A DNA stretch of 39,166 bases, taken from the NCBI GenBank assembly GCA_964632315.1, contig CAZWEM010000046.1, positions 1-39,166 on the forward strand, given 5' to 3'. How positions within the stretch are numbered: position 1 is the stretch's first letter; the number at the start of each line of letters is the position of its first letter. This document shows, piece by piece, positions 9,278 to 30,737 of this stretch. Below the pieces are notes generated by a model. That model was not told where the DNA came from and did no database searches. It worked only from the letters and a program-made list of their open reading frames with translations. Both the position numbers and the translations under genes were made by a program. The stretch comes from an uncultured archaeon. Its GTDB lineage: Archaea > Asgardarchaeota > Lokiarchaeia > Sigyniarchaeales > SOKP01.

Positions 9278-9383
9278 CAAGCTTAAGTTTAATAGTGGGT
9301 TATCATTCCCGTGAGAGAATTGATAATCTTAATAATTAGTCCCAAATTAATAGTGTTGATCAATTAAAGATTTAAGAGTCATT
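9278..9383 (+). repeat. Direct-repeat copy B, the promoter region of the arcE-like gene
   Basis: Aligns to 6640-6736 and ends just before the ATG at 9388. Confidence 0.85.
9296..9310. promoter_or_regulatory. TGGG-N8-CCC putative operator upstream of arcE-AOR
   Basis: TGGGTTATCATTCCC, ~78 nt before the start codon. Confidence 0.6.
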
Positions 9384-10798: not shown

Positions 10799-12985
10799 AT
10801 GATAGTAGAAAAAAAGGAATATGAAATCCGAGAAGTGCAGAAGGGATATAGTAATAGGACACTATACATCGATATTACTTCTAATAAAATTGAAATAAAA
10901 CCTGTTTCTAACGAAATGAAACAAAAATTTATTGGTGGAAAGGGTTTTGATTTATGGCTCATGTGGCATGCACTCCCTAAGGATCGCGTCGTTAAATGGG
11001 ATGATCCCATAAATGAGATCTGCATTTCTTCTGGTCCGTTAGGTGGGAGTATCTTTTATCCTGGCTCTGGAAAGTCTATAGTCACCACTATTTCCCCCTT
11101 AACTGGTATTGTTATTGATAGTAATGTGGGAGGATATTTTGGACCATATCTTAAATTTTCAGGATTTGATGCGCTTGAAATTCAAGGTAAATCAGATAAA
11201 GAAAAAATAATTTACATAGATGGGATAGAGGGTTTTGTTGAAATAGAAGAAATAGGAGATTGGGATAATCTATCAATATATTCACATGAACTTACCCAAT
11301 ATCTTACCGAAAAATACGCTAAAGATGACTCGGAAAAAAGTCAGATATCAGTAGTAAGCACGGGTCCAGCAGCAAGACATACAAATTGGGGGATGTTAAA
11401 TTTCTCTTGGTATGTGAGAGGTCGACAATGGGCTTCGGTCAAACAAGCTGGGAGAGGAGGAATTGGCACTGTTTTTGCAGATAAAAAAATTAGAGCAATT
11501 GTCTGCCGAACTCCAAAAGTGAAGTTAAATTCGAATAACGCCGCGGATTTGGAGACTGCTAAAAAACTTGGACAAACACACAGTCAAGAAATTATAAAGA
11601 ACGATCCCATCCAAAATGAAATGAGAAGAGTAGGAACTGGCCACTTACCAGATATCATGAATGTCACTGATTTGCTTCCAACAGAAAATTTTCGATTTGG
11701 GGCGCATAAAAAAATACGAGGAAAAGATATTCCATATAGCAGGGAGATAATGAGAGATATATATTCTGGGAGAGAAGGAGCAGATGGGTGCTGGATAGGA
11801 TGTACTGTGAGTTGTTCTCATTATTCTGAAAATCATGAAGTACTTACTGGTCCATTCAAGGGACAAAAAGTAATTGTGGATGGCCCAGAGTATGAAACTA
11901 TAGCAGGTTGTGGTTCTAATTGGGGCGTGTGGCATCCTAAATGGGTCTTAGAAGCAAACTTCTACTGTGATACGTATGGGCTTGACACAATATCGGTAGG
12001 AACCGGGATTGCATTCGTCATGGAATGTTTCGAAACGGGAATCTTAAATAAAGAAATTACGGGAGGTTTGGAATTAAATTTTGGTAACGCTTCCGCAGCT
12101 CTTGAACTAATACACCAAATGGCTCGGGGAGAAGGTTTTGGGATGACAGTTGGAAAGGGAATTAAAAAAATGAAAACATTATTCATTGAGAAATATGGAG
12201 CAGATCCTCAATTTCTTCAAGATATTGGGATGGAACATAAGGGATTAGAATTCTCTGAATATATGACAAAGGAATCGCTTGCCCAGCAAGGAGGATATGG
12301 ATTTACAAATAAGGGCCCTCAGCATGACGAAGCTTGGCTGATATTTGAGGATATGGTCCGAAACACGATTCCAAGCTTCGAAGATAAGGCAAATGCCCTT
12401 ACATTCTTCCCTTATTGGCGCACATGGTTTGGATTATGCGGGTTGTGTAAGCTCCCGTGGAATGATATTGTCCCCCCAGATAACAGCGAATACCCAATAA
12501 AAGACCCGGATACTGGAGCTTTGGTGAGAGCTACGATTCCCAAACACGTCGAATGGTATGCAAAGTATTATTCCGCAGTTACAGGTATTGAATCAGCACC
12601 TAATGATTTGATAACTATGTCAGAACGAGTTTATACCTTTCAAAGAATCTTTAACATACGGCAAGGTAAAGGACTTCGTGAAAATGATTCACATTTACCA
12701 TATCGAGCAATGGGACCAGTCACACCGCTTGAATATGAGAGTAGAGCTGAACGATATGACGAGCAATTAATGGAACTTGGAATTAGCATTGAGGGAAAAA
12801 ATACCACTGAAAAAATAAAAGTTTTAAGATCATATAGAGAAAATCAATATGTTAAGCTTCAAGATGCCGTATATAAAAAAAGAGGTTGGACAAAAAGTGG
12901 TTGCCCAACCATTAAATTAGTAAGGGAATTAGGAATTGATTATCCCGATGTAATTGCATATATCAAACCTCATCAAGACATTTAA
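10799..12985 (+). CDS. Aldehyde:ferredoxin oxidoreductase (W/Mo-pterin AOR family)
   Basis: FIGGKG, SPLTG..DSNVGG, QAGRGGIG, CWIGCTVSC, GPEYET, CDTYGLDTIS, GLCGLCKLPW, YKKRGW. Confidence 0.93.
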   Translation: MIVEKKEYEIREVQKGYSNRTLYIDITSNKIEIKPVSNEMKQKFIGGKGFDLWLMWHALPKDRVVKWDDPINEICISSGPLGGSIFYPGSGKSIVTTISPLTGIVIDSNVGGYFGPYLKFSGFDALEIQGKSDKEKIIYIDGIEGFVEIEEIGDWDNLSIYSHELTQYLTEKYAKDDSEKSQISVVSTGPAARHTNWGMLNFSWYVRGRQWASVKQAGRGGIGTVFADKKIRAIVCRTPKVKLNSNNAADLETAKKLGQTHSQEIIKNDPIQNEMRRVGTGHLPDIMNVTDLLPTENFRFGAHKKIRGKDIPYSREIMRDIYSGREGADGCWIGCTVSCSHYSENHEVLTGPFKGQKVIVDGPEYETIAGCGSNWGVWHPKWVLEANFYCDTYGLDTISVGTGIAFVMECFETGILNKEITGGLELNFGNASAALELIHQMARGEGFGMTVGKGIKKMKTLFIEKYGADPQFLQDIGMEHKGLEFSEYMTKESLAQQGGYGFTNKGPQHDEAWLIFEDMVRNTIPSFEDKANALTFFPYWRTWFGLCGLCKLPWNDIVPPDNSEYPIKDPDTGALVRATIPKHVEWYAKYYSAVTGIESAPNDLITMSERVYTFQRIFNIRQGKGLRENDSHLPYRAMGPVTPLEYESRAERYDEQLMELGISIEGKNTTEKIKVLRSYRENQYVKLQDAVYKKRGWTKSGCPTIKLVRELGIDYPDVIAYIKPHQDI

Positions 12986-13077: not shown

Positions 13078-13092
13078 TGGGAATCTATTCCC
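13078..13092. promoter_or_regulatory. TGGG-N8-CCC putative operator upstream of the PDH-like/OTC/CK genes
   Basis: TGGGAATCTATTCCC (palindrome GGGAAT-CT-ATTCCC); TATA-like TTATATA at ~13140. Confidence 0.65.
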
Positions 13093-13180: not shown

Positions 13181-15262
13181 ATGGATTTCATAACAACTCA
13201 TCCCATTTTAGATATTCCTGATCGGAAACGAGTTCAGTTCACCTTTAATGGAGATGCTTACGAAGCATTTGAGGGAATGGTCATATCTTCAGCTTTATTT
13301 TTGAACGGAATCAAAATTTTTGGACATCATCCCAAAGATCAAAGCCCTCAAGGGATATTTTGCGCGAATGGTCAATGTTCGCAATGTAATGTTATTGTGA
13401 ATGGATTTCCTACGAAGGGGTGTATGACACCACTCAAGAACGGCATGGTCATTGAGAGTTGTAAAGGCATACCAGAATTACCACCTGTTGATGACCTTGT
13501 AGAAGTTGGCGATGTTAAGTCAATTGAGACAGAAGTTTTAATAGTTGGAGGTGGTCCTGCTGGGCTTTCAGCAGCGAGAGTATTTGGAATGGAGGGGATA
13601 GATGTCATCTTAATCGATGATAAGTTAAAATTGGGCGGAAAATTAATACTTCAGACCCATAAATTCTTTGGTTCACAAGAAGACGTTTATGCCGGAAAAA
13701 GGGGGATCGATATTGCAAAAATTTTAGCGCAGGAAGTACAATCCTATGAATCCGTTAAAGTATTTCTAAATAACTCGGCATTGGCAATATTTAGCGATAA
13801 GAAAGTAGGAATCCTAAAGAATGCAGAAGAATATCTTTTAATAAAGCCTAAGTATCTTTTGATTGCTACTGGAGCACGAGAGAAAATGTTAGTTTTCTCC
13901 GGAAATACTTTACCCGGAATTTATGGGGCAGGAGCATTTCAAACGTTAGTTAATCGAGATTTAGTGAAAGCAGCTGAAAAAGTTTTCATTGTAGGAGGAG
14001 GTAATGTAGGGTTGATCGCAGGGTATCATGCTATTCAAGCAGGAATCGGAGTTGTGGGGCTTATTGAAGCATTACCCGTGTGTGGAGGATATAAAGTGCA
14101 CGAAGATAAACTCAGACGTCTAGGAGTCCCAATTTATACAAACCACACGATAATTTCCGCTAATGGAAAAGAAAGGGTTGAATCGATCACAATAGGGAAA
14201 ATTGACGAATTTGGTGAAATTGTTGAAAATACTGAAAAAACATTTCCGTGTGATACGATTTTAATCGCTGTTGGATTAAATCCCGTGGATGAATTTTATG
14301 ACAAAGCGATCCAATTTGGAATGAACGTACGAATAGCAGGAGATGCACAAGAGATTGCAGAAGCTTCCGCTGCAATTTTTACTGGAAGAATTGAAGCTTT
14401 AAAAATGTTGGAAGATATGGGAAAGGTCATCGAAGAGGATCTTTCAAGCTTAGAGGATTTTGCTGATTTAATGAAAAAGAAGCCCCCAATGCCATCTAAA
14501 TCAAATTTTCCAGAAAAAGAAGAAGGAATTTTTCCCTTATTCCATTGCAACCAAGAAATTCCCTGTAATCCTTGTACTTCTGTTTGTCCCCAAGAACAAA
14601 TCAAAACTGAAGAGGATCTCATTACTAATTTGCCTTATTTCAAGGATGAAAAAGAGTGTATCGGATGTGGAAAGTGCGTTGCAGTATGCCCTGGGCTTGC
14701 AGTCACGCTGGTTGATTATAGGAAAGATAAAGATTATCCTTCAGTCACCTTTCCTTTAGAGCTCTCAGAATCAAGATTACAAAAGGGAATCTCTATTTTT
14801 GTTGTTAGTAATGATTCCGTGCTTGGAGAATTTGAAATTTCTCGCGTTCGTGTCTTGAAAGAATTTCCAAAGACCCAATTAATAACAATTAAGCTACCTA
14901 AAACTATAGTCAAAAAAGCTGTTGGTTTAAAATTACATCAGAATGTTTATGATCAAGAAATTGATACTTATCAAAAAGATTTCACTCCAAACGATACTAT
15001 TGTCTGTCGTTGTGAACGAGTCACAGTGGGAGAAATTCGCAAATGGATTCGTTATGGAGTAAGAGATTTCAATGAGTTAAAAGCATTAACCAAAGTTGGA
15101 ATGGGATCTTGTGGAGGAAAAACTTGTACTCCATTAATAAATAGAATTTTTCGAGAAGAAGGAATTGATGATTTTAAGATTGTTCAAGGAACTAAAAGAC
15201 CATTATTCATGGAAGTTCCCATGGGATACTTTGCAAGCGTAAGTAGAAAAGGAAGTGAATGA
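13181..15262 (+). CDS. Proline dehydrogenase/sarcosine oxidase alpha-like fusion: 2Fe-2S + FAD/nucleotide-binding + 2x[4Fe-4S] + BFD-like 2Fe-2S
   Basis: GIFCANGQCSQC, IVGGGPAGL, ATGARE, VGGGNVGL, CNQEIPCNPCTSVCP, CIGCGKCVAVCP, VCRCERVT, GMGSCGGKTC, RP. Confidence 0.88.
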   Translation: MDFITTHPILDIPDRKRVQFTFNGDAYEAFEGMVISSALFLNGIKIFGHHPKDQSPQGIFCANGQCSQCNVIVNGFPTKGCMTPLKNGMVIESCKGIPELPPVDDLVEVGDVKSIETEVLIVGGGPAGLSAARVFGMEGIDVILIDDKLKLGGKLILQTHKFFGSQEDVYAGKRGIDIAKILAQEVQSYESVKVFLNNSALAIFSDKKVGILKNAEEYLLIKPKYLLIATGAREKMLVFSGNTLPGIYGAGAFQTLVNRDLVKAAEKVFIVGGGNVGLIAGYHAIQAGIGVVGLIEALPVCGGYKVHEDKLRRLGVPIYTNHTIISANGKERVESITIGKIDEFGEIVENTEKTFPCDTILIAVGLNPVDEFYDKAIQFGMNVRIAGDAQEIAEASAAIFTGRIEALKMLEDMGKVIEEDLSSLEDFADLMKKKPPMPSKSNFPEKEEGIFPLFHCNQEIPCNPCTSVCPQEQIKTEEDLITNLPYFKDEKECIGCGKCVAVCPGLAVTLVDYRKDKDYPSVTFPLELSESRLQKGISIFVVSNDSVLGEFEISRVRVLKEFPKTQLITIKLPKTIVKKAVGLKLHQNVYDQEIDTYQKDFTPNDTIVCRCERVTVGEIRKWIRYGVRDFNELKALTKVGMGSCGGKTCTPLINRIFREEGIDDFKIVQGTKRPLFMEVPMGYFASVSRKGSE

Positions 15263-16433
15263 TCGATTGACAGAATACGATGCTATCATAATTGGAGCCG
15301 GAAGCATTGGCATCCCTTCAGCATTAGCCATCGCAAGAGAGGGGTTAAAAGTGTTAGTCCTCGATAAATTACCATCTCCTGCTCAAGCAGATAATAAACA
15401 TGCCATTGGAGGTGTCAGAGCAACTCATACTGAAAGAAGTAAAATCTGGCTATGCCAGAGATCAATCGAAATATTTTCAACATGGGAGGAAGAATATGGT
15501 GATGATATATGGTGGGAACAAGGTGGATATTGCTTTGTCTCCTATACTGGTGAACATGAACGAATGCTGAAACAAAACGTAAAACTGCAGAAATCTTATG
15601 GATTAAATATCGATTACGTAGATAAAGAAAAGATAAAGGTACTCATTCCAGGAATAAATGAAAATGGCCTTCTAGGAGGGACTTATAGCCCCGAAGATGG
15701 AAATTGTTCTCCCCTACTCTCTCTTCATGCTTTTTATAGGCAAGCACGAGATTATGGTGCTGAATACCGTTTTAGTGAAGAAGTTAAAAAAATAATTGTT
15801 GATAATGGCAAAATAAGTGGAATTAAGACCACAGAAGGAGAATACCACAGCTCAATTGTTATTAATGCTGCGGGGGGGAATGCAAAAGAAATCGGAAAGA
15901 TGGTTAATGTTGATTTACAAGTTAACCCCGAATCGCATGAAGCAGGAATAACTGAGCCTGTGAAAAAGTTTTTCAATCCAATGGTGGTGGATATACGTCC
16001 CGCTCAAGATCCTAAATTTGGAAATTCTAAAAATTATTATTTCTATCAAAATAAAGAAGGGAAGATCATTTTTTGTGTTTCTCCCGATCCTTGTATTAAA
16101 GGAATGGATCGGAGAGAAACCAGTTCTTTCTTGCCACAAATAGCAAAACGAATGATCAATCTGCTTCCAAGGTTAAAAAATATAAAGGTGAGGAGGACTT
16201 GGAGAGGATTATACCCGATGACTCCAGATGGTAACCCTATTCTATGTAAATCAAAAGAATTGGAGGGTTTATTTCTAGCAGTGGGAATGTGTGGTCAAGG
16301 ATTCATGCTTGGTCCGGCAGTGGGAGAATTAATGGGTCGTCTTGTAACTGAAAAATTAACAATTCGAGATAAAGAAATTTTAGAAGACCTCTCTTATTAT
16401 AGAGACTTTAATCGAGAAGAAGTATTGAAGTAA
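15255..16433 (+). CDS. FAD-dependent DAO-family oxidoreductase (proline dehydrogenase/sarcosine oxidase beta-like)
   Basis: IIGAGSIG, VINAAG, RTWRGLYPMTPDGNPIL, GMCGQGFMLGP; overlaps the alpha-subunit stop (translational coupling). Confidence 0.9.
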   Translation: MNDRLTEYDAIIIGAGSIGIPSALAIAREGLKVLVLDKLPSPAQADNKHAIGGVRATHTERSKIWLCQRSIEIFSTWEEEYGDDIWWEQGGYCFVSYTGEHERMLKQNVKLQKSYGLNIDYVDKEKIKVLIPGINENGLLGGTYSPEDGNCSPLLSLHAFYRQARDYGAEYRFSEEVKKIIVDNGKISGIKTTEGEYHSSIVINAAGGNAKEIGKMVNVDLQVNPESHEAGITEPVKKFFNPMVVDIRPAQDPKFGNSKNYYFYQNKEGKIIFCVSPDPCIKGMDRRETSSFLPQIAKRMINLLPRLKNIKVRRTWRGLYPMTPDGNPILCKSKELEGLFLAVGMCGQGFMLGPAVGELMGRLVTEKLTIRDKEILEDLSYYRDFNREEVLK

Positions 16434-16489: not shown

Positions 16490-17422
16490 ATGGTTAGACA
16501 TTTACTTAAGGTATCAGATCTTTCAAGATCAGAATGTGAACTCATAATAAACAAAGCAATTGATATTAAAAAAAATCCAAATAAATATTATAATTCCTTA
16601 GAGCACGAAACTCTTCTTATGCTTTTTGAAAAACCTTCTTTACGAACAAGAATTTCCTTTGAAACTGGAATGAATCAACTAGGAGGGCATGCAATATTTT
16701 ATTCAATTAAGGATTCACCTTTAGGAAAAAAAGAAAATATATCTGATACTTCCATAGTTGCTTCGAGGTTTGTAAATATCATTGCAGCTCGTGTCTTCAA
16801 AAGGCAAGACATTTGGGATCTCGCTAAATATGCTAGTGTCCCTGTGATCAACATGTTAGATGATTTCGCACATCCCTGTCAAATATTAGGAGATTTTCTT
16901 ACAATAAAAGAGAAGAAGGGTAAACTTGATGGATTTAAACTTGCTTACTACGGAGATGCTCATAATAATGTAACATACGACTTGATGAGAATGGCGGCTA
17001 TATTTGAGTTAGAAATGGATGTTGCTTGTCCAATGGGTTCGGAATACATGCCTGAAGATATTGTACTTGAAGAAGTAAAAAATCTTTCTAACAATTCTGG
17101 AGCAAAAGTAAGAATCATTCATAATGCTGAAGAAGCTGCACACTCTGCTAATGTTATATATACAGATAGTTGGATGTCATACGGTATTCCAAAAGATAAA
17201 GAAGAAGAACGGGTAAAGGCTTTTAATCCTTATCAAGTTACTAATGAAATATTGGATTTAGCAAATTCAGATGTAATATTCATGAATTGTTTACCCGCTA
17301 TGCGTGGATATGAACAAACAGCTGAAGTTATTGATGGACCACATTCAGTAGTTTTCGATCAAGCCGAAAATCGGTTACACATTCAAAAGGCAATTATGCT
17401 CTTTCTCAGAGGGAAATTCTAA
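16490..17422 (+). CDS. argF: Ornithine carbamoyltransferase
   Basis: FEKPSLRTR, HPCQ, YTDSWMS, FMNCLPA, FDQAENRLH. Confidence 0.96.
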   Translation: MVRHLLKVSDLSRSECELIINKAIDIKKNPNKYYNSLEHETLLMLFEKPSLRTRISFETGMNQLGGHAIFYSIKDSPLGKKENISDTSIVASRFVNIIAARVFKRQDIWDLAKYASVPVINMLDDFAHPCQILGDFLTIKEKKGKLDGFKLAYYGDAHNNVTYDLMRMAAIFELEMDVACPMGSEYMPEDIVLEEVKNLSNNSGAKVRIIHNAEEAAHSANVIYTDSWMSYGIPKDKEEERVKAFNPYQVTNEILDLANSDVIFMNCLPAMRGYEQTAEVIDGPHSVVFDQAENRLHIQKAIMLFLRGKF

Positions 17423-17508: not shown

Positions 17509-18414
17509 TTGATCATTGCGCTTGGCGGAAATGCCCTAATAAAGTTTGGAGAAGAAGGAACCACCGAAGAACAGTTTAAGAATTTAAGAGTTCCAATGTC
17601 ACAAATAGCTGAGCTTTCAAGAGAATATAATATTGTAATCACTCATGGAAACGGCCCCCAGGTTGGAATGCTTCTCATGCAACAAGAAGCAACTCAAGAG
17701 GTCTCAAAGAGACCACTACAAGTGTTAGTAGCAGAGACACAAGGACAAATTGGGTACATGATCGAATCGACGTTAGATGAAGAATTGATGAAGATCGGTC
17801 AAGATGAGCAAAAACTTTTTCTTACTGTTCTCACGTATGTTAAGGTTGACCCAGAAGATCCGGCTTTTCATAATCCTACAAAACCAATTGGACCTGCTTA
17901 TCCCCAACCAAAACCGGGCTATGTAAAGACTAACAAGGGATGGCGTCGAGTAGTCCCCTCTCCTAAACCTAAGAAAATCTACCAATGGAGAGAGATCAAG
18001 AGATTAATGGAATTAGGGAGTTGGATTGTCATTGCTTGCGGAGGAGGGGGAATTCCAGTAATCAAAGAGGGAAAAAGGTTATCTGGAGTTGAAGCAGTGA
18101 TTGATAAAGATTTAGCAAGTTCCAAGTTAGGAGAGCAAATCGGAGCCGATATTTTATTAATTGCTACCGATGTAGAAAAAGTTGCCCTTAATTATGGCAC
18201 ATCTGAACAAAAATTTCTTGATAACATTTCAATTAAAGAGGCATTAAAATACTTGGAAGAGAACCAATTTCCAGCTGGAAGTATGGGTCCAAAGGTTCAA
18301 GCTGTTGTAAATTTTCTCCAAACTGGTGGTAAAAGAGCGATTATTACTTCTATTGATAAGATCAAAGAAGCCTTAAAAGGAGAAGCAGGAACCCACTTCT
18401 ATATTGAAAAGTAG
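17509..18414 (+). CDS. arcC: Carbamate kinase (start uncertain: TTG 17509 or ATA 17500)
   Basis: IALGGNAL, THGNGPQVG, PTKPIGP, WRRVVPSP, GGGGIPV, EAVIDKD, GSMGPK. Confidence 0.96.
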   Translation: MIIALGGNALIKFGEEGTTEEQFKNLRVPMSQIAELSREYNIVITHGNGPQVGMLLMQQEATQEVSKRPLQVLVAETQGQIGYMIESTLDEELMKIGQDEQKLFLTVLTYVKVDPEDPAFHNPTKPIGPAYPQPKPGYVKTNKGWRRVVPSPKPKKIYQWREIKRLMELGSWIVIACGGGGIPVIKEGKRLSGVEAVIDKDLASSKLGEQIGADILLIATDVEKVALNYGTSEQKFLDNISIKEALKYLEENQFPAGSMGPKVQAVVNFLQTGGKRAIITSIDKIKEALKGEAGTHFYIEK

Positions 18415-18477: not shown

Positions 18478-19737
18478 TTATTTAATTAGGACGTTTTCTA
18501 TTATACCTAATGCCCAGTCTATTTGTTCCTTCGTTATCACAAGAGGAGGGGCAAATCTAATAATCGTGGAATGAGTATCTTTAGCTAAAATACCATTATC
18601 CTTTAATTCTTCCACGATAGGTCTAGCATTTACTTTAAATTCTAGAGCAATCAATAAACCTTTCCCTCTAACTTCTTTTACAGGAATTTTTGGACCTTTA
18701 GCAACGATTTTTTTTAAGCCTTCCAAAAAATAGGTCCCATTTTCTTTTGCTCTCTGCGCTAGATGATCCTCAATGTGAACTTCAAGTGATTTAGTTCCCA
18801 CTGCGGCTGCAATTGGATTGCCTCCAAATGTTGAACCGTGTGTCCCAGGTTTAATAACATCTGGTCCAATAATATCTTTATTAGCTACTACAGCTGAAAC
18901 TGGATACACTCCTCCACCTAATGCTTTTCCTAATAACAACATATCCGGTTTAACATTTTCGTGATCGCAGGCAAATAATTCACCCGTCCTTCCAAACCCC
19001 GTTTGAATTTCATCAGCTATCATTAAGACATTATATTTTGAGCATATTTCTCTAACTTTTTTGATGTATCCTTCAGGAGGAATATTTATCCCAGCTTCTC
19101 CTTGTATCGGTTCGAAGATGAATCCAGCTACTCTTTCAGGTCCTATTTCAAGGATAATATTCTCTAAAATCTCTGCCATTCCATAGGGAATTATCGTGAA
19201 ACCTGGAGTGTACGGTCCAAAGTTACCATAATACCGTACAGCAGATATATCAGTACTTATTCCTACAATAGTGATGGATCTTCCATGGAAATTATTTCGA
19301 CATACTATAATTTGAGCGTCGTTCTTAGGAATTTTCTTCTTAATATATCCCCACGCTCGAGCAACTTTCAATCCAGTTTCAACAGCTTCAGTACCAGTGT
19401 TCATGGGGAGAGCCATTATCCCTGAATTATTTGGATCATTTAAGTGAGGTCCAACAACTTCACACAATTTCTTTATAAATGGCCCCATTACATCATTATG
19501 AAACGCTCTAGAGGTGAGAGTTACTTTATCTGCTTGTTCTTTTAAGGCTTTAATAATATCTGGATGTCTATGTCCCGTATTTTGACTTGAATAGGCTGAT
19601 AAACAATCTAGATATTTATTTCCTTCCGGATCCCATACCCATACTCCTTCAGCTTTACTAATAACGACGGGAATGGGGTGGTAATTGTGAGCACAATATT
19701 CAAGGTCCATATCAATATAATCTTTTGTTCCTGGCAA
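18478..19737 (-). CDS. rocD: Ornithine--oxo-acid aminotransferase (class III PLP)
   Basis: AHNYHP, YLDCLSAYS, LTSRAF, PMNTGTEAVET, EPIQGEAG, DEIQTGFGRTG, LGKALGGG, HGSTFGGNP. Confidence 0.93.
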   Translation of the reverse strand: MPGTKDYIDMDLEYCAHNYHPIPVVISKAEGVWVWDPEGNKYLDCLSAYSSQNTGHRHPDIIKALKEQADKVTLTSRAFHNDVMGPFIKKLCEVVGPHLNDPNNSGIMALPMNTGTEAVETGLKVARAWGYIKKKIPKNDAQIIVCRNNFHGRSITIVGISTDISAVRYYGNFGPYTPGFTIIPYGMAEILENIILEIGPERVAGFIFEPIQGEAGINIPPEGYIKKVREICSKYNVLMIADEIQTGFGRTGELFACDHENVKPDMLLLGKALGGGVYPVSAVVANKDIIGPDVIKPGTHGSTFGGNPIAAAVGTKSLEVHIEDHLAQRAKENGTYFLEGLKKIVAKGPKIPVKEVRGKGLLIALEFKVNARPIVEELKDNGILAKDTHSTIIRFAPPLVITKEQIDWALGIIENVLIK

Positions 19738-21532: not shown

Positions 21533-22081
21533 TTACCTGTTTATTTTTGAGAGAACACCTGTTAAGAGGTTGGAAAAGGCTTTTTCTACGTTATCACCCG
21601 ATTTGGCGCTTGTTTCGATGAAATCTCTAGCCTTAATTTTTTCAGCTACCGTTTTACCTTCTTTAGTTGTTATCCCTCTTGAGCCTTCTAAATCACTTTT
21701 ATTTCCAATTAATAAGAATGATGCATTTTCTTTACCGTATGTAATAAGATCCGGATACCATTTAGACTCCACACTTTCCAAGGTGGAAGGTCTTGTTAAA
21801 TCGTAAACAAAAAGCGCTCCAGAACATCCTTGAAAAAACATCCTGCGAGAAAGCTCATAACGTTCTTGACCTGCTATGTCCCAAATAATTAATTTCACTT
21901 TTAGGTTCTTTTCTTTTACTTCAATATCCTTAATCAGAATGTTAACCCCTAATGAAGCGTTGTATTGCTCATTAAACTTATGATGAATGTATTGATCAAT
22001 GAGCGAAGTTTTTCCTGTAGCTGGGTCTCCTAAAAGGGCTATTTTATACATTAAATCGGTTTTCTCGGGTTCAGACATCAC
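21533..22081 (-). CDS. Rab-like small GTPase (Ras superfamily, Asgard type)
   Basis: G1 GDPATGKTS, G3 WDIAGQE, G4 GNKSD, G5 ETSAK; RabF-like KLIIW; no C-terminal Cys motif. Confidence 0.95.
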   Translation of the reverse strand: MMSEPEKTDLMYKIALLGDPATGKTSLIDQYIHHKFNEQYNASLGVNILIKDIEVKEKNLKVKLIIWDIAGQERYELSRRMFFQGCSGALFVYDLTRPSTLESVESKWYPDLITYGKENASFLLIGNKSDLEGSRGITTKEGKTVAEKIKARDFIETSAKSGDNVEKAFSNLLTGVLSKINR

Positions 22082-22160: not shown

Positions 22161-23753
22161 TCAATATCCAATAGCTTGTCCATCTTTTCGAGGATCTGAA
22201 GCAGCTAAGTAACCTTCATCTAATTTATAGATTATTTGACCTCCTCCAAAATTGAAATATAGATCTTCCTTAATAGAATGACCCTTTCTAGTTAATTTAT
22301 TGATGCTATTCTTATTAAATTCACTTTCAACTTTAGCGTTCAACCCATTTATCACCCTCCAGCGAGGTGCATCTAACGCAGTTTGGGGATTTTGACCATA
22401 TTCAAAAATACGAATCATCATTTGAGCATGTCCTTGAGGCTGCATCTCTCCTCCCATCACGCCAAAGCTCATAATAGGCTTTCCTTTTTGAGTCACAAAT
22501 CCAGGAATTATGGTGTGAAATGGTCGCTTATTGGGTCCAACTTGATTAGGGTGACCTTCAATCAAGTTAAATCCATTTCCCCTATTTTGAAGGCTAATTC
22601 CAGTTCCGGGAATAACTATTCCAGATCCAAAGCCCATATAATTGGATTGAATGTATGAAACCATCATTCCGTCCTCATCAGCAGCAGTTAAATATACTGT
22701 ATCACCTTCTTTTGGGATCCCGTGTTTAAAGATTTCAGCGCGAGTTAAGTCTATTTCTAAAGCCCTGTGTTTCAAATAATCATCATCTAGTAAGTGCACA
22801 GGATCAAATTCCAAGGTTGAGGGATCGGAGATATATCGATATGCATCAGAAAATGCGAGTTTCATTGCTTCTAGTTGAATGTGAATCGCTTCAGGAGAAT
22901 CTGGGTCGAACTCACTAATATCAAAATTCTTCAAGATCCCCAACATGATTAATGCAGTTATACCTTGTCCATTTGGAGGAATCTCATGTAAAGTTACTCC
23001 TTTATAATCCATAGAAAGAGATTTTTCCCAACTGACTTTGTGATTTTCAAGATCTTGGAGTGTCATAACTCCCCCTGTATTTTCAGAATGAGATACAATC
23101 TTTTTTGCTAATTCTCCACTATAAAAGGCTTCACCTTTTGTTTGAGCAATCTTTCTTAGGGTTTCTGCTTGAGGAAGACACTTAAATAACTGACCAGGCG
23201 AGGGTGGTTTTCCATTGATCATGAATGTTTCATAAAATTCGGGATATAATCGTTTTTTATACATTTTAGCGAGATAACCCCATATCTCGGCTGTTACTGG
23301 AGAAACAATGAATCCTTTCTCAGCATACCTTATTGCTGGCTTAAATAATTCTTCAAATGATAATTGTCCATACTTATTTGATAATTCCACCCATGCGGAT
23401 ACTGCGCCTGGAATGGTAGTAGCATCCCAACCAAACATTGGCATTGATTTTCTGCGTGAAAAATACTCTGGAGTCCATGCAGCGGGAGATCTTCCAGAAG
23501 CATTCAAACCTTTAAGTGATTTTCCGTCCCAAATTAAAGCGAACGCATCACTACCAATTCCATTATTTACCGGTTCAACCACGGTTAGGGTGATAGCGGT
23601 CGCAATCGCAGCATCTACAGCATTACCTCCATTTAATAACATTTTTATACCAGCTTGACACGCAAGAGGTTGCGAAGTTGCGATAACATTTTCAGCTAGA
23701 ATAGGCATTCTACGAGAAGGATATTTAAAGTTCCATCCAAACTTTCCGAACAT
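22161..23753 (-). CDS. ggt: Gamma-glutamyltransferase family protein (cytoplasmic)
   Basis: ATSQPLA, GGNAVDAAIA, GLNASGRSP, catalytic GD/TVYL, RPFHTIIP, GVMGGEMQPQGH, SDPRKDG; no signal peptide. Confidence 0.94.
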   Translation of the reverse strand: MFGKFGWNFKYPSRRMPILAENVIATSQPLACQAGIKMLLNGGNAVDAAIATAITLTVVEPVNNGIGSDAFALIWDGKSLKGLNASGRSPAAWTPEYFSRRKSMPMFGWDATTIPGAVSAWVELSNKYGQLSFEELFKPAIRYAEKGFIVSPVTAEIWGYLAKMYKKRLYPEFYETFMINGKPPSPGQLFKCLPQAETLRKIAQTKGEAFYSGELAKKIVSHSENTGGVMTLQDLENHKVSWEKSLSMDYKGVTLHEIPPNGQGITALIMLGILKNFDISEFDPDSPEAIHIQLEAMKLAFSDAYRYISDPSTLEFDPVHLLDDDYLKHRALEIDLTRAEIFKHGIPKEGDTVYLTAADEDGMMVSYIQSNYMGFGSGIVIPGTGISLQNRGNGFNLIEGHPNQVGPNKRPFHTIIPGFVTQKGKPIMSFGVMGGEMQPQGHAQMMIRIFEYGQNPQTALDAPRWRVINGLNAKVESEFNKNSINKLTRKGHSIKEDLYFNFGGGQIIYKLDEGYLAASDPRKDGQAIGY

Positions 23754-23856: not shown

Positions 23857-24171
23857 TTGAAAACAAGCACTAACAATTTTACTTTAACGGGGTCCTTAGT
23901 TGACGGAGATAATACATATGAATATATAGGGAAAATCGAATTTAATTCTGATAAGGTTTTACAACATGTTCACGATGAGAGGGGACAAAAAAATTTAGGT
24001 GCTATAGTACGTATCGAACGTTATATTTGGGATTTAACCTATACAGCAGGCACGGGTTCATTACCAAATGGAACCAGTGGAGCAATTCCAGGATATCCTG
24101 CCTTGCTAATAATTTCGATATTGATAATCGATATGATGATTATAATCTGGAAGAAAAAGTTAATCAAGTGA
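23857..24171 (+). pseudogene. Probable C-terminal fragment of a surface protein with a Loki-CTERM-like sorting signal
   Basis: Gly/Ser/Thr linker then AIPGYPALLIISILIIDMMIIIWKKK; TTG start, no signal peptide, Asp within the TM segment. Confidence 0.55.
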
Positions 24172-24952
24172 ATTTCCTATTTTCTAATTCATTAATAAAA
24201 AAGCTTGCTACAATTTCAGCATAAGTTCCAGGTCCAAAACCAGCATCATATCCTAATTCCTTTGCCAATTCATTCGTAATTCTCGGTCCACCACAAATTA
24301 AGATTATTTTTTCTCTAATTCCTTCTGCTTCAAGTAAATCTACTAAATTAGTGAGATTTTTAACGTGGATATCTTTTTGAGTTACTGTTTGTGAAACTAA
24401 AAGAACATCTGCATCCAAACCGATTGCTTTTTTAACGAATTCCTCATTGCTGACTTGACTTCCCAAGTTATATATTTCAATCATTTCATATCTTTCAAGT
24501 CCATAATGACCGGCAAATCCCTTCATATTCATAATTGCATCAATGCCGACAGTATGAGCGTCAGTACCTGTGGTAGCTCCTAACACTACTAATTTTCTTC
24601 CAAAATGTTCTTTAATAAACTGATTAATCTCATCCATACTCATTGGTTTCACACCTAAAGATTCAACTTTAATTACTGTAAGATCAATAGTATGAATTAA
24701 TTCTCCATAGATGATGAAAAAAGTAAATTCTTTGTCAAGAGATTGATGATGTACCACCGAGGGATCTTGAATCCCCATTTTTTTAGCTAGAGCTATTGCT
24801 GCATAAAGAGCTTTTTCTCCATCTTCGATTGGAAGGGTGAAACTGATTTGAACTTCCCCATCATTCAATGTATCTCCATATGGTTTAATTCTCGTTGGAT
24901 CTATTTCCTTATCGTACTCTTTTTTATTAATAGAATAAAGGCCTCCACCCAT
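24164..24952 (-). CDS. kamE: Lysine 5,6-aminomutase beta subunit (B12-binding)
   Basis: KPYGDTLNDG, DAHTVG (DxHxxG), IMNMKG (PLP lysine), GHYGLERY, SQTVTQ, GYDAGFGPG. Confidence 0.96.
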   Translation of the reverse strand: MGGGLYSINKKEYDKEIDPTRIKPYGDTLNDGEVQISFTLPIEDGEKALYAAIALAKKMGIQDPSVVHHQSLDKEFTFFIIYGELIHTIDLTVIKVESLGVKPMSMDEINQFIKEHFGRKLVVLGATTGTDAHTVGIDAIMNMKGFAGHYGLERYEMIEIYNLGSQVSNEEFVKKAIGLDADVLLVSQTVTQKDIHVKNLTNLVDLLEAEGIREKIILICGGPRITNELAKELGYDAGFGPGTYAEIVASFFINELENRKFT

Positions 24953-26539
24953 TTATTTATCTCCTCCTAAACTTTCAATATTCAAATCCCGTGACATTGT
25001 TTCTAGAAATGGATTCAAGTAATCCTTATCTTTGATAATGACCCCCTCTAAACCTTTACCGCCATCAATTGGTCTCTTTATCCCTGCAAATATCCCTTTT
25101 TCAATTGTTTTGAAAAGTCCCTCTCTCTCTATGTTTTTTAAAAGATCAGTTGCTTGTTTTAACACTTCCTCTGCCCTTCGTTGAAGTATACCATTTTCTT
25201 TAAATTGAATCTCATTTCCCAAATCCTTCATATTGTTAAAGATATATCGAGCATTTTCAATGGATAGTGCCCTATCTGACATAAAAGGAGTATGAATTGC
25301 CTCTGTTAACATTCCAAGAAGGTGAATTCTTTGATTTGTAAGGATTGTGACCATATTAAAAAGGGCGTCTTGAACATGACCTTTAAAGATATTACCCGTC
25401 ATAAATTTGGTAGGTGGCATGTACTTTAATGGTGCTTTTGGAAAGATCTCGCGAGCCATTTGAGCTTGAGCCAATTCATATAAAAAACCATTTTCTAATT
25501 CAGGGTTCATTTCAAAGGCATGTCCCAAACCCATTTGTTCTTCAGATAATCCAGCTAATTTAGCAAATTGCTCATTGATGAATTGAGATGCTAACACTGT
25601 ATCAGCGGCTTCGTAGGCATCATCAGTAGTTAAATAGTTATCTTCTCCCGTGTTGATAATTACTCCCGCATAGGCGTTGATCATTCTGGAGAAATGTTGA
25701 TCAATTATCGTTCTTTGCATGTTTATATCTCTGAACAAAATTCCGTATAAGGCATCATTAAGCATCATATCCAATCGTTCCAAAGCGCCCATAGCAGCAA
25801 TTTCGGGCATACATAATCCTGAACAATAATTTGTCAAGCGGATGTACCTTCCTTGTTCTTCACTAACTTCATCTAAAGCAGTCCTCATGAGTCGAAAATT
25901 TTCTTGTGTCGCAAAAGTACCACCAAATCCTTCAGTGGTACTACCATATGGAACATAATCCAATAAGCTCTGTCCCGTAGATCTTATCACAGCAATTACA
26001 TCAGCACCTTGTCTTGCAGCTGCCTTAGCTTGGACGATATCCTCAAAGATATTCCCCGTTGCTACTATTAAATATATCAACGGTTCATTTTTTTCTCCAT
26101 ACTTTTTGATTAAATCCTCCCTAGTTTGCTTGTTTCGTTTAATGATCTCCAGATTTTTACTAATAATTGAGAGCAATGCTTTTTTGATTTCAGGTAATTC
26201 CTCCCAAGAAAGTTCTGCTAGATTTAATTGACCTTGGTAAACTCTTTCAGCAATATCTTGAGGGGACAAATTTGTATGTAAAATTGCATTACCTAAATAT
26301 AGTGCAACTCCCTTGTTTATTTGACCCTTTTTAATTACATGATCTACAACGACATTGGGCAATGGTACTCCAAATTCGTCCGTACCGTTAATGCCTAATA
26401 ATCTACATATAGTTCTCTCTATAGAGGTTGTAGTATGTTGGTCTATGAATTTCTGAATATCAATAACTATTTTTTTGGCAATTTTCCTAGCATCATCTAC
26501 CAATTTAAAGTTCAAATTCAACTTATTTTTTACTCCCAT
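24953..26539 (-). CDS. kamD: Lysine 5,6-aminomutase alpha subunit
   Basis: VATGNIFED, AVIRSTGQSLLDYVPYG, NYCSGLCMPE, NTGEDNYLT, KYMPPTK, GMLTEAIHTP; abuts kamE. Confidence 0.96.
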   Translation of the reverse strand: MGVKNKLNLNFKLVDDARKIAKKIVIDIQKFIDQHTTTSIERTICRLLGINGTDEFGVPLPNVVVDHVIKKGQINKGVALYLGNAILHTNLSPQDIAERVYQGQLNLAELSWEELPEIKKALLSIISKNLEIIKRNKQTREDLIKKYGEKNEPLIYLIVATGNIFEDIVQAKAAARQGADVIAVIRSTGQSLLDYVPYGSTTEGFGGTFATQENFRLMRTALDEVSEEQGRYIRLTNYCSGLCMPEIAAMGALERLDMMLNDALYGILFRDINMQRTIIDQHFSRMINAYAGVIINTGEDNYLTTDDAYEAADTVLASQFINEQFAKLAGLSEEQMGLGHAFEMNPELENGFLYELAQAQMAREIFPKAPLKYMPPTKFMTGNIFKGHVQDALFNMVTILTNQRIHLLGMLTEAIHTPFMSDRALSIENARYIFNNMKDLGNEIQFKENGILQRRAEEVLKQATDLLKNIEREGLFKTIEKGIFAGIKRPIDGGKGLEGVIIKDKDYLNPFLETMSRDLNIESLGGDK

Positions 26540-26611
26540 AGTCTTAAGACCTTAAACAGAAAATTAGTTTTCTTAGAATTATGTGCTTTAATAATTCAAG
26601 CAAATTATATT

Positions 26612-27664
26612 TTAGTATTTACTTGGTCCAAGATCGTAAATTGGAATAGAAATTCCTTTTTCTAATTCGCTTAAGAATTTAGACTTGTTAAATTGATATC
26701 CTAAGGGTGAAGTAGGATTAATTGTAAGAATAAGGACTCGAATCTGATTCAAAACCCGTATTGTCCCTCCTTTTTTCAAATATTGTTCAAAAACACGTTT
26801 ATTCAGAAATAGTTTAGTAGCATCTGGAACAAGAATCTTAATGTTTTTATAATAATCAGTCTTTTTCATGAATTCTTCTAGGAATTTGTCTGTAATGGCT
26901 CCATTTATCACTAAATATCGTGATGAGGGGCTAATTTCTTGTAATATTTCTTCAACGGAACCTAATGCAGTAGGCAAGGGTAATGTTCTTGTTGAATTAT
27001 TTTCATCAATGATTCCAATTTTTGTATTTAAAATAAGTGTATTGGCTAATTTCACGATTAGAGGGTTTTGCTCTTTTTCTACCCCCAATAAATTAATTGT
27101 ATGATGGGTAAGATTTATGACTTCATTCATTTTTTTTGAGACTGAAGCGCCAGTAGATAATATTGTTGCATGAGATATTAAAGGAGATGCATAAGAACGT
27201 CGATCAAAAGCACCATCAATAAGCACTATATCACATCCTAAATGAAGTAAATAATTGCATACTTGTTTCAATTCGGAATTAATTGAAGGTCCAGCTAATT
27301 CGACTAACCCACTACCTAAAGTTCGAACAATCTGAATCTCACCCATAGGTGTGTTGATTCCTGTCTTTTTTACTACTTTCGATTTTACTTCGCTATTTTC
27401 TAAGCTTTGCTGAGCTGTTGCTAAGTAAGTTCCCTCTTCAATCTTTATGCGTGGTTTTGGCATGTTGGTAATAGCGTCATATTTTTCTCCATCTCTTCCA
27501 ATTGAAGTAAGCCCTAGTTTATACTCTCCTTTTAGAACTTGGATGATGTGATTTAAAGTTGTTGTTTTGCTCACATTTTTTGCAAGACCGATAATTGAAA
27601 TGATCTTATATTGTTTTACAACAGTTTTAATTAAATCGGTGAATTCCATAACGAAATTACTCAT
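26612..27664 (-). CDS. kamB: KamB-like lysine 5,6-aminomutase accessory/reactivase subunit
   Basis: ISIIGLAKNVSKTTTLN (P-loop-like), GLTSIGRDGE, PKPRI, LAGP, LIDGAFDR, ILSTGA; directly upstream of kamD. Confidence 0.75.
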   Translation of the reverse strand: MSNFVMEFTDLIKTVVKQYKIISIIGLAKNVSKTTTLNHIIQVLKGEYKLGLTSIGRDGEKYDAITNMPKPRIKIEEGTYLATAQQSLENSEVKSKVVKKTGINTPMGEIQIVRTLGSGLVELAGPSINSELKQVCNYLLHLGCDIVLIDGAFDRRSYASPLISHATILSTGASVSKKMNEVINLTHHTINLLGVEKEQNPLIVKLANTLILNTKIGIIDENNSTRTLPLPTALGSVEEILQEISPSSRYLVINGAITDKFLEEFMKKTDYYKNIKILVPDATKLFLNKRVFEQYLKKGGTIRVLNQIRVLILTINPTSPLGYQFNKSKFLSELEKGISIPIYDLGPSKY

Positions 27665-27778
27665 AAAACGATTTTAATTAAGATATATTAAAAATTCTTC
27701 CAATAATAATTTTGATTGCATAATATTATATATTCTAATGAGAAATCTATACTAATTAATATTTAATTAGGAAAAATA

Positions 27779-29848
27779 ATGAAAAGAAACAATTTAAAAA
27801 TCATTAAAGCGGTCTTAGCAATATTTATTTTACTGATAATTCCAACGATTATTGCTATCATTCCTAGGTCTTCTGAAATGCGGAGGAGATGGGTGAATGA
27901 CTTACCGGATTCATACCATCTAAGCGACATCATTAATGCTACGATGGGCTATGAAGAACGGAAAAACGTTTACTTAGAAGATAGTAATAAAAGCAATGGA
28001 TTTTATGCTCAATCTACTAGGATTTACTTAAATGGTTCGGTGAATGAAGTTCCTTTTTCAGAAGCTTTGAATAAAATTAATAATAGAGAAGATACAGCAG
28101 ACTTTAGAATGGCAAGCTTATTGCGAATGATGTACCTTGATAATATAACTGGTGTTTTAGATCCCACCTTTAAATTGGAATTAAAAAATGCGATTCTCAA
28201 TTTTAAATACTGGTTCACGGAACCAGGACCATCTGATATGATAATGTGGACAGAAAACCACATGATCTTGTTTCGATCTTGTGAATTACTTGCTGGACAG
28301 CTATATCCAGATGAAATATTTCCAAATTCTGGAATGAATGGCACACAACATGTTCAACATGCATTACCAAAAATTAATCAATGGATTGAATGGAGATCGC
28401 GTTTTGGATTTTCAGAATGGCACTCTGATGTCTATTATGAAGAAGATTTAGCAGCTTTACTAAATATAGTTGAATTCGCTCAAGATAATGCCACTGCTAC
28501 TAAAGCTGCAATGTTAGTTGACCTATTCGCATTTGATTTTGCTAATCATTATTTTAATGGAACATATGCTACAACGAATGGTAGAACGTATGATGACAAG
28601 AAAGTTGGAACTAGTCTTATCAATCTTCCCTCTCGAGCCTCTTTTGCTGAAACTGCTTGGATACTTCTCGGTTTAGGATATCATGATCCAAATGCGGGTA
28701 ATAGCATGGCAGCAGTAGCACTTTCAACGAGTAATAAATATACACCCCCACCAATTTTAGAAGCAATAGCAAATGCAACCTTAGATTATCATGAAAGTAA
28801 AGATAGAAATAGTATTAATATAGCAGATGGTCCTGATTATGGATTTGGATATGAATCTGAGAATGATATGATGTTTTGGTGGCCCATGTCAGCAGTTTTT
28901 AGCAGCGAAACGATTGAACCTTCTCTCAATCTTACAGAATATTATAATCTGGGATATAACACGGTATTCAATGATGAAATGCTAGTTGATTTGCTAAAAG
29001 TTGCTGCAGATCTTTATGGTATGAGCTTGCCAGAAGTATGTGCTTTTATTAAAGAAGCAACACAGGGTGCCGTTCTTGAGGAAACAAATACATATACATA
29101 TCGCACCCCCTATTATCAGCTTTCAGGCGCCCAAGATCATCAGAAAGGTATGGCAGGATATCAAGAATATATATGGCAAGCTTCTTTAGATGAATATGCT
29201 TACATTTTTACGAATTCGTACGGTGGATTTCGTTTTGAGGATTATGTTGGAGGCTTTAAACCCCGTGCGACTCTATATAAGAATTTAGGAGTGATAGAAT
29301 ATGATCGCTTGTCTCAGCCCTTGTTAATGGAAATAGTATATCTAATATTAGGATTTGACCCCTACATACAAACTTATTTCCCCCGTTGGGCATTTGATGA
29401 AGTAATCCAGCAAGATAAATGGATTTTTGGCAGGAGATTGAATAGTTACGTCGGATTATATTCAGATGAACCAATAACTTGGGAGAGTAATTATGAACTT
29501 AGAACATTTGGAAGAAAGAACGCGTACATTGTAGAATTAGGCAGTATCGAAGATTATGGGACGTTTGATAACTTTACTACCTCATTGTCAGAAACAAGAG
29601 TTGATGTTCGCCATTTGGCTGTTGGGTATGACATCCAATATCTATCTCCTACAAGAGGTTTGGTAAAAGTTGCATGGAACGGTCCAATGACTGTGGCTGG
29701 GGAAGAAGTAGATTTAGGACCATATCCTAAATTTGAAAATGAATTCTGCATTCAAGCATTTAATACGCTTAGGACCACTATAGAGCATGGAAACATGAAG
29801 CTAGTATTAGATTTTGAAAATGCAACGAGAGCATATACAGAATTATAA
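27779..29848 (+). CDS. Membrane-anchored/secreted hypothetical protein, possibly heparinase II/III-like lyase architecture
   Basis: N-terminal TM; WTENHMILF, ELLAGQLYPD, GFSEWHSDVYYEED, QEYIWQASL; helical N-half and beta-rich C-half; many N-x-S/T sequons. Confidence 0.7.
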   Translation: MKRNNLKIIKAVLAIFILLIIPTIIAIIPRSSEMRRRWVNDLPDSYHLSDIINATMGYEERKNVYLEDSNKSNGFYAQSTRIYLNGSVNEVPFSEALNKINNREDTADFRMASLLRMMYLDNITGVLDPTFKLELKNAILNFKYWFTEPGPSDMIMWTENHMILFRSCELLAGQLYPDEIFPNSGMNGTQHVQHALPKINQWIEWRSRFGFSEWHSDVYYEEDLAALLNIVEFAQDNATATKAAMLVDLFAFDFANHYFNGTYATTNGRTYDDKKVGTSLINLPSRASFAETAWILLGLGYHDPNAGNSMAAVALSTSNKYTPPPILEAIANATLDYHESKDRNSINIADGPDYGFGYESENDMMFWWPMSAVFSSETIEPSLNLTEYYNLGYNTVFNDEMLVDLLKVAADLYGMSLPEVCAFIKEATQGAVLEETNTYTYRTPYYQLSGAQDHQKGMAGYQEYIWQASLDEYAYIFTNSYGGFRFEDYVGGFKPRATLYKNLGVIEYDRLSQPLLMEIVYLILGFDPYIQTYFPRWAFDEVIQQDKWIFGRRLNSYVGLYSDEPITWESNYELRTFGRKNAYIVELGSIEDYGTFDNFTTSLSETRVDVRHLAVGYDIQYLSPTRGLVKVAWNGPMTVAGEEVDLGPYPKFENEFCIQAFNTLRTTIEHGNMKLVLDFENATRAYTEL

Positions 29849-29850
29849 TT

Positions 29851-30726: not shown

Positions 30727-30737
30727 AGATCCTTTTA

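Follow-up and report, generated by a model that had tools for sequence, protein, structure and literature searches.

What an aldehyde oxidoreductase does within a cluster of arginine genes is the question raised by the locus described here. The stretch of DNA analysed (39,166 nt, hereafter the window) lies on contig C46 of a 4.45-Mb Lokiarchaeial genome with a completeness of 99.5%, and contains genes in the order ArcE-AOR-PDHalpha-PDHbeta-OTC-CK-(OAT); these encode a putative arginine synthetase (ArcE), an oxidoreductase of the AOR family, the two subunits of a proline-dehydrogenase-like flavoenzyme (PDH), ornithine carbamoyltransferase (OTC), carbamate kinase (CK) and ornithine aminotransferase (OAT). 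Most AOR and WOR clades are without an assigned physiological substrate (PMC12096430), and a sequence-only reading of this DNA had proposed that this AOR oxidises glutamate-5-semialdehyde (GSA), the aldehyde in equilibrium with pyrroline-5-carboxylate (P5C). With roughly even confidence, we predict that GSA is indeed a physiological substrate in the lineages that carry the cluster. No earlier proposal of an AOR acting on GSA or P5C was found in full-text literature searches covering part of the journals.

Linkage of AOR to proline dehydrogenase genes

The AOR gene begins 73 nt downstream of the arcE-like open reading frame, as the sequence-only reading had noted in suggesting that co-occurrence of AOR with arcE and rocD be scored. 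Among 121 genomes sampled from the class, an AOR orthologue is present as a single copy in 80, PDHalpha in 64, OAT in 73 and ArcE in 67, and the co-occurrence of AOR with all three is strong; 59 of the 64 PDHalpha genomes contain AOR, and in the other five PDH lies on short or cut contigs. The steadiest partner of AOR, however, is the Pyrococcus-type proline dehydrogenase pair and not arcE. Of the 29 closest loci, 25 have PDHalpha within 1.5 kb of AOR and three more have it within 4 kb (the last is cut by a contig end). Eight 20-kb loci representing genera g2, g4, g10, g11 and g14 all have the same AOR-PDH linkage, and the distance between AOR and the PDH pair stays within 4 kb throughout the 37 loci examined from cluster-bearing genera. 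ArcE, by contrast, lies directly upstream of AOR in no more than 15 of the 29, and the bacterial clusters described below lack it. The full order IsoDH-ArcE-AOR-PDHa-PDHb-OTC-CK-OAT is found in three further genera, and AOR, PDH and OAT are jointly absent from complete genomes of genera g1 and g2 (e.g. G021, G025, G073, G001 and G009).

The PDH assignment itself draws on both subunits. PDHalpha is a fusion of Fer2_4, Pyr_redox_2, two [4Fe-4S] Fer4 and BFD [2Fe-2S] domains with PDB matches to sarcosine oxidase alpha and P. horikoshii PH1363, and resembles the former without its folate domain. The best PDB match of PDHbeta is to 1y56_B (the beta subunit of the P. horikoshii L-proline dehydrogenase PDH1, 192 bits), compared to at most 81 bits for sarcosine, glycine and dimethylglycine oxidases (81 for sarcosine oxidase beta). 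The genes at 13181–16433 thus have the features of an archaeal dye-linked L-proline dehydrogenase, with a predicted specificity for proline. We also considered opine oxidase as an identity for the pair, and regard it as less probable because the plasmid homologues (Agrobacterium and Rhizobium included) are no more than 30% identical and match more weakly than P. horikoshii PDH1 beta.

The linkage extends to bacteria. A deltaproteobacterial metagenome-assembled genome (MAG) contains the order GntR-PDHa-PDHb-AOR, with identities of 54% (PDHa), 54% (PDHb) and 59% (AOR) to the window proteins. In a sample of 301 genomes from one bacterial phylum, a close AOR orthologue (at least 55% identity) is present in 14, PDHalpha in eight and both in seven (Fisher 6e-10, a value that counts related genomes as if they were independent), and AOR and PDH are no more than 8 kb apart in six of the eight PDHalpha-bearing genomes. 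The bacterial arrangements vary and include a co-directional PDHa-PDHb-AOR order, divergent genes, and loci in which either an amino-acid ABC transporter or a MazE/PIN pair intervenes. That the linkage persists in two domains despite changes in gene order is what argues most strongly for a functional coupling of AOR and PDH. The intervening MazE/PIN toxin-antitoxin pair is seen in one bacterial genome, between PDHbeta and AOR (L104:8067–8749). A metagenomic AOR (51% identical) follows an unfused set of five subunits (Fer2_4, Pyr_redox_2, Fer4, BFD and DAO) together with a gene of the AcnX family, reported to comprise cis-3-hydroxy-L-proline dehydratase, and precedes an aminotransferase gene.

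A few loci come from MAGs with other archaeal labels, namely L021, L024 and L093 (Undinarchaeota) and L025 and L092 (Thermoplasmatota). Three of the four AOR or PDHalpha genes compared from these group with bacteria: the Undinarchaeota-labelled AORs nest within the bacterial clade, and a PDHalpha labelled Thermoplasmatota shares 72% identity with its counterpart from a deltaproteobacterium. At 3.6 Mb, the 'Undinarchaeota' genome is unusually large. These patterns suggest either horizontal transfer or mis-binning.

The AOR protein and its clade

Both domains of the family are readily recognised in the window AOR (AFOR_N, PF02730, 159 bits, E 1.4e-46; AFOR_C, PF01314, 309 bits, E 5.7e-92), and its best PDB sequence matches are the Pyrococcus furiosus enzymes AOR (166 bits) and FOR (155 bits). 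It does not belong to the curated equivalogs tried, scoring 94 bits against a cut-off of 868 for AOR sensu stricto (NF007354) and 53 against 1300 for GAPOR (NF040818). A 2025 review lists four second-shell residues that are conserved in aldehyde-oxidising clades (Thr243, Glu313, Tyr427 and His448 in P. furiosus AOR numbering; PMC12096430); in a HMMER alignment to 1AOR these correspond to T280, E366, Y488 and H509 of the window protein. None of the four varies among 15 orthologues from archaea and bacteria, nor do the cluster ligands C331, C335, C339 and C550, and from these residues we predict a catalytically competent member of the family.

The CWIGCTVSC and GLCKLPWND motifs pointed out in the sequence-only reading are both present. 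The CX3CX3C spacing of the former characterises the whole core clade and most of its outer members, other AORs usually having CX2CX3C (including nine of the ten paralogues from the same genome that were aligned), but it is not exclusive to the clade, as a few AORs outside share it. The first pterin motif is conserved (DTYGLDT, aa 391–397); in the second, GLC(550)K is retained, but the position five residues upstream, a pterin-binding Asp in other AORs, is occupied by Gly, Ser or Asn within the clade according to a fast MAFFT alignment. About 120 additional residues are scattered over loops. An AlphaFold2 model built from 15 sequences (mean pLDDT 69.9, pTM 0.81) was used for the fold only, and has the three-domain AOR fold as far as a model of this quality can indicate: Foldseek matches it to FOR, AOR, BamB and WOR5 with TM scores by target of 0.70–0.84, FOR (1b25) being the top match at 0.84 and AOR following at 0.83, with identities of 23–25%.

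An exhaustive HMMER search reveals a stepwise drop in similarity, with full-length relatives of about 700–860 aa at 36–60% identity separated from ordinary AORs of about 600–650 aa at no more than 35%. The family tree that the sequence-only reading called for recovers these long proteins as a distinct clade (maximum likelihood, 80 sequences, SH-aLRT 100%), and all ten paralogues included from the same genome fall outside it. We note that the full paralogue set of 16 AORs in this genome is very large, and that most of its members lack an assigned substrate. A polyferredoxin gene (130–155 aa, AorA-like) lies directly upstream of AOR, or overlaps its start, at several loci of the clade (L060:8441–8833, L079:7543–8004, L025:9435–9881 and L088:6582–6986). 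No such gene is present in the window cluster, where the Fer4 domain of PDHalpha might stand in for it.

The fate of P5C and the rival explanations

The absence of an NAD-dependent P5C dehydrogenase from the window, also remarked in the sequence-only reading, is confirmed in that no PF00171 aldehyde dehydrogenase (ALDH) is encoded there, and the genome-wide search for rocA and putA that it recommended found neither. The genome as a whole encodes a single PF00171 protein, on contig C15, scoring 164 bits compared to the 660-bit cut-off of TIGR01237, and no ProC, PutA-type Pro_dh or ArgG was found in it; at least four glutamate dehydrogenase (GDH) genes are present. Across the class, canonical P5C dehydrogenases above cut-off are rare (TIGR01237 in none of the 121 genomes, TIGR01236 in two), and PDH or OAT is encoded in 76. 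A generic ALDH occurs in 79 genomes, those without the cluster included, and is missing from the complete, cluster-bearing G031, G053 and G067. The C15 protein was rejected as a dedicated GSA dehydrogenase, since it falls below every NCBIfam cut-off (the best being lactaldehyde dehydrogenase) and the distribution of such proteins does not track that of PDH and OAT. Because PDH and OAT are present, the canonical dehydrogenase is rare and the generic ALDH does not follow them, P5C and GSA are made with no other evident sink. The one unassigned enzyme of the cluster is an aldehyde oxidiser, and the one unassigned step of the pathway is an aldehyde oxidation.

We therefore envisage a pathway, of which the substrate, electron acceptor, metal and direction of the AOR reaction are what we infer. 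ArcE, OTC and CK would convert arginine to ornithine with a yield of ATP, and OAT would turn ornithine into the equilibrating pair GSA and P5C, a pool that the PDH alpha/beta flavoenzyme would also feed, from proline. AOR would then oxidise the open-chain aldehyde to glutamate at a tungsten-bis-pterin site, with two electrons passing through its [4Fe-4S] cluster to ferredoxin or possibly to the Fe-S domains of PDHalpha, and the glutamate would be taken up by the several glutamate dehydrogenases. AOR would thereby close the catabolism of arginine, ornithine and proline in cluster-bearing lineages. If this is correct, the missing P5C-to-glutamate step of the Lokiarchaeia is filled, the newly described arginine synthetase pathway is extended down to glutamate, and anaerobes would draw ferredoxin-level reducing power, useful for syntrophic production of H2 or formate, from a reaction for which aerobes use NAD+. 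In any case the long AOR clade gains a specific, bench-testable hypothesis grounded in gene linkage across two domains, and the bacteria carrying the PDHab-AOR cassette may be experimentally easier than Asgard archaea.

A good deal weighs against GSA as the substrate, and much of it would fit a broad-spectrum or otherwise specialised AOR that in reality acts on some other aldehyde from amino-acid fermentation, with its adjacency to PDH reflecting shared regulation or electron carriers; we consider this somewhat unlikely. The sequence-only reading stated that close homologues unlinked to arginine or proline genes would refute its GSA proposal, and this is partly the case. In 17 of the 80 orthologue-bearing Lokiarchaeial genomes, from seven other genera and several of them 97–100% complete, the orthologue (62–72% identical) is kept where no PDHalpha, OAT or ArcE was found, and in the five of these that were tested (97–100% complete) a search at E 1e-15 found no PDHbeta-like gene; the neighbours of AOR in such PDH-less genomes are housekeeping genes. 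PDHalpha was likewise not found in seven of the 14 bacterial genomes with close orthologues. The enzyme can evidently persist without a known source of GSA. Many more distant members have unrelated neighbours, including ILVD_EDD with a FAD oxidase, polyferredoxin, ThiS/ThiF and GGACT, and 14 bacterial loci in the 36–43% identity tier have no recurrent informative neighbour save a KamA-like gene in two (L110 and L112). Characterised AOR clades are mostly broad-spectrum (PMC12096430), the genome studied (G000) itself has 16 AFOR_C matches (16 loci, L002–L017), the presence of PDH switches nine times or more along the AOR tree, and the structural model falls below a pLDDT of 50 at residues 450–524, around the active site. 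Two Lokiarchaeial genomes (G039 and G094) and a bacterial one (G270) encode a genuine P5C dehydrogenase alongside the cluster, so that AOR is not a strict replacement for that enzyme. The PDH-less cases are nonetheless not scattered evenly: the sampled genera g3, g6 and g8 group in a single derived subclade surrounded by PDH-linked lineages, g19 branches off on its own, and the sampled cases thus reflect few loss events. A broad-spectrum enzyme also leaves unexplained the loss of AOR together with PDH and OAT from complete g1 and g2 genomes, and the persistence of AOR-PDH linkage through changes of gene order in two domains is hard to ascribe to chance or co-regulation alone. Besides the linkage to PDH and the lack of another evident sink, the conserved catalytic residues and the precedent of P. 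furiosus FOR (see below) speak for GSA oxidation.

Three further readings keep AOR and PDH together and differ in chemistry or direction. The same glutamate/GSA pair might be used in reverse, reduced ferredoxin driving an ATP-independent reduction of glutamate to GSA that would feed proline, ornithine, citrulline and arginine, with PDH running as a P5C reductase and OAT, OTC and ArcE running towards synthesis. The lack of ProC and ArgG and of a clear ProA (the single ALDH leaving none) would be accounted for in this way, AORs are able to reduce acids given a strong reductant (PMC12096430) and ArcE is reversible both in vitro and in vivo (PMC11032458). We nevertheless regard a biosynthetic role as very unlikely: complete sister genomes do without the entire cluster, as suits an accessory catabolic trait, carbamate kinase and the several GDH genes agree with catabolism, and the authors of the ArcE study favour the catabolic direction in comparable organisms. 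The acid/aldehyde couple, moreover, has a very low potential of about -580 mV, which weighs against the reverse reaction. It is equally improbable, in our judgement, that the PDH-like enzyme oxidises some other secondary amine and AOR the resulting aldehyde, whether formaldehyde from sarcosine or an N-methyl amino acid, aminoadipate semialdehyde from pipecolate, or a product of hydroxyproline. A formate-tetrahydrofolate ligase gene directly after AOR in L020 (L020:12631–14547) and after PDHbeta in L107 (L107:5558–7321) hints at one-carbon chemistry and at formaldehyde, but the PDHalpha genes of these two loci are the most similar pair (78% identical) and count as a single lineage; no AOR orthologue was found in the L107 genome. 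The likeness of PDHalpha to sarcosine oxidase alpha is tempered by the missing folate domain and by the much better match of PDHbeta to L-proline dehydrogenase than to sarcosine oxidase, and although the AcnX-family gene beside the split PDH-like system could point to hydroxyproline, the Lokiarchaeial cluster also encodes OAT, whose product is GSA. Finally, AOR and PDH alpha/beta may together constitute a tungsten-dependent anaerobic counterpart of PutA, converting proline to glutamate in two steps, in Asgard archaea and sulfate-reducer-type bacteria, perhaps as a confurcating complex or a reversible system. In such a complex, very low-potential electrons from GSA and high-potential electrons from proline would come together at the PDHalpha Fe-S and FAD modules and be confurcated to NAD(P)+; the system could also work backwards, making proline and ornithine from glutamate without ATP. 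Taken as a whole, we think this unlikely.

Neighbouring features and comparison with known systems

Coordinates of the cluster are given in Table 1. The ArcE assignment is made on annotations: the protein has no Pfam or NCBIfam match, the sole PDB match, with cyclic 2,3-diphosphoglycerate synthetase, is weak, and its homologues are labelled 'predicted GTPase' or 'cDPG synthase'. The 2024 paper on ArcE (TK2200) does not mention an aldehyde oxidoreductase, but does describe homologues with annotations of this kind, some of them in Lokiarchaeota (PMC11032458); it is from this agreement that the product is taken to be ArcE.

Table 1. Features of the AOR-containing arginine cluster in the window
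Feature	Coordinates	Strand	Basis
ArcE-like protein, putative arginine synthetase (arginine + ADP + Pi -> citrulline + ATP + NH3), 445 aa	9388..10725	+	homologue annotations
Long-clade AOR-family oxidoreductase (predicted tungstopterin/[4Fe-4S]), 728 aa; proposed glutamate-5-semialdehyde:ferredoxin oxidoreductase	10799..12985	+	AFOR_N, AFOR_C
CWIGCTVSC cluster-binding motif (Cys331/335/339), aa 331–339	11789..11815	+	CX3CX3C spacing
GLCKLPWND motif with fourth cluster ligand Cys550, aa 548–556	12440..12466	+	motif, alignment
PDHalpha, fused alpha-type subunit of proline-dehydrogenase-like flavoenzyme, 693 aa	13181..15262	+	Pfam, PDB matches
PDHbeta, DAO-type beta (catalytic) subunit of proline-dehydrogenase-like enzyme, 392 aa	15255..16433	+	DAO domain E 1.6e-58
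Ornithine carbamoyltransferase (OTC)	16490..17422	+	TIGR00658, 355 bits vs cut-off 281
Carbamate kinase (CK)	17509..18414	+	TIGR00746, 372 bits vs cut-off 358
Ornithine--oxo-acid (delta) aminotransferase (OAT), rocD type; product glutamate-5-semialdehyde	18478..19737	- (convergent)	TIGR01885, 517 bits vs cut-off 378

The window has a low GC content (about 0.23–0.38 in 2-kb windows), and close homologues are found in Promethearchaeota/Lokiarchaeota MAGs. The spacer between AOR and PDHalpha is 195 nt, compared to about 20–45 nt in most relatives. Imperfect palindromes with a common ATTCCC half-site are located upstream of arcE (9300–9326) and of PDHalpha (13079–13092) and may be a regulator site; an operator shared across the cluster was rejected, as the intergenic regions have no exact 10-mer in common other than AT-rich runs and the palindrome pair is too weak. 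To the right of the arginine genes, and between these and a lysine cluster, is a Ras-family small GTPase gene (21533–22081, minus strand; PF00071, 154 bits), an Asgard hallmark. The lysine fermentation genes at 24164–31976 (D-lysine 5,6-aminomutase alpha and beta, and lysine 2,3-aminomutase) are interspersed with plus-strand genes. Gamma-glutamyl enzymes recur near members of the AOR clade, with a gamma-glutamyltransferase (GGT) gene in the window (22161–23753, minus strand) and at L079:16117–17724, and, in L021, a gene resembling gamma-glutamyl cyclotransferase a short way upstream (L021:8744–9241).

Among characterised enzymes, P. furiosus AOR (1AOR) shares with the window protein both Pfam domains, the fold (TM 0.83 by target), the four cluster cysteines, the DxxGLDT motif and the Thr/Glu/Tyr/His second shell. 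The two are only about 23% identical in the Foldseek alignment, however, and the window protein is about 120 residues longer through loop insertions, has CX3CX3C in place of CX2CX3C and, in the fast MAFFT alignment, belongs to a clade in which the second pterin Asp is replaced by Gly, Ser or Asn; AOR sensu stricto and the window AOR fall in separate clades (SH-aLRT 100%). P. furiosus FOR (1B25/1B4N), the best structural match, is about 25% identical and differs in clade and length. Its substrate is presumed to be a C5 acid semialdehyde or dialdehyde, the Km being lowest for glutaric dialdehyde and glutarate being present in the crystal (PMC12096430). By analogy, FOR would be the nearest functional parallel to a GSA oxidase. 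We know of no gene linkage of FOR to proline dehydrogenase or arginine genes.

In Aromatoleum AorABC (8C0Z) and the electron-bifurcating WOR1 (9MQX), the catalytic subunits work with polyferredoxin and FAD subunits. The window cluster has no AorA- or AorC-like gene, unlike AorABC, but in several members of the clade a polyferredoxin gene overlaps the start of AOR, and the PDHalpha next door contains Fer4 and FAD domains. The likeness to NAD-dependent P5C dehydrogenase (RocA, or the C-terminal domain of PutA) is one of proposed function only, as PF00171 is absent from the AOR protein. That enzyme uses an ALDH fold, a Cys-thiohemiacetal and NAD+, whereas the window enzyme would use a tungsten-pterin and an Fe-S cluster with electrons passing to ferredoxin. 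Both would carry out the same net conversion of GSA to glutamate at the same place, after proline dehydrogenase and OAT, and PutA likewise pairs the two steps of proline oxidation.

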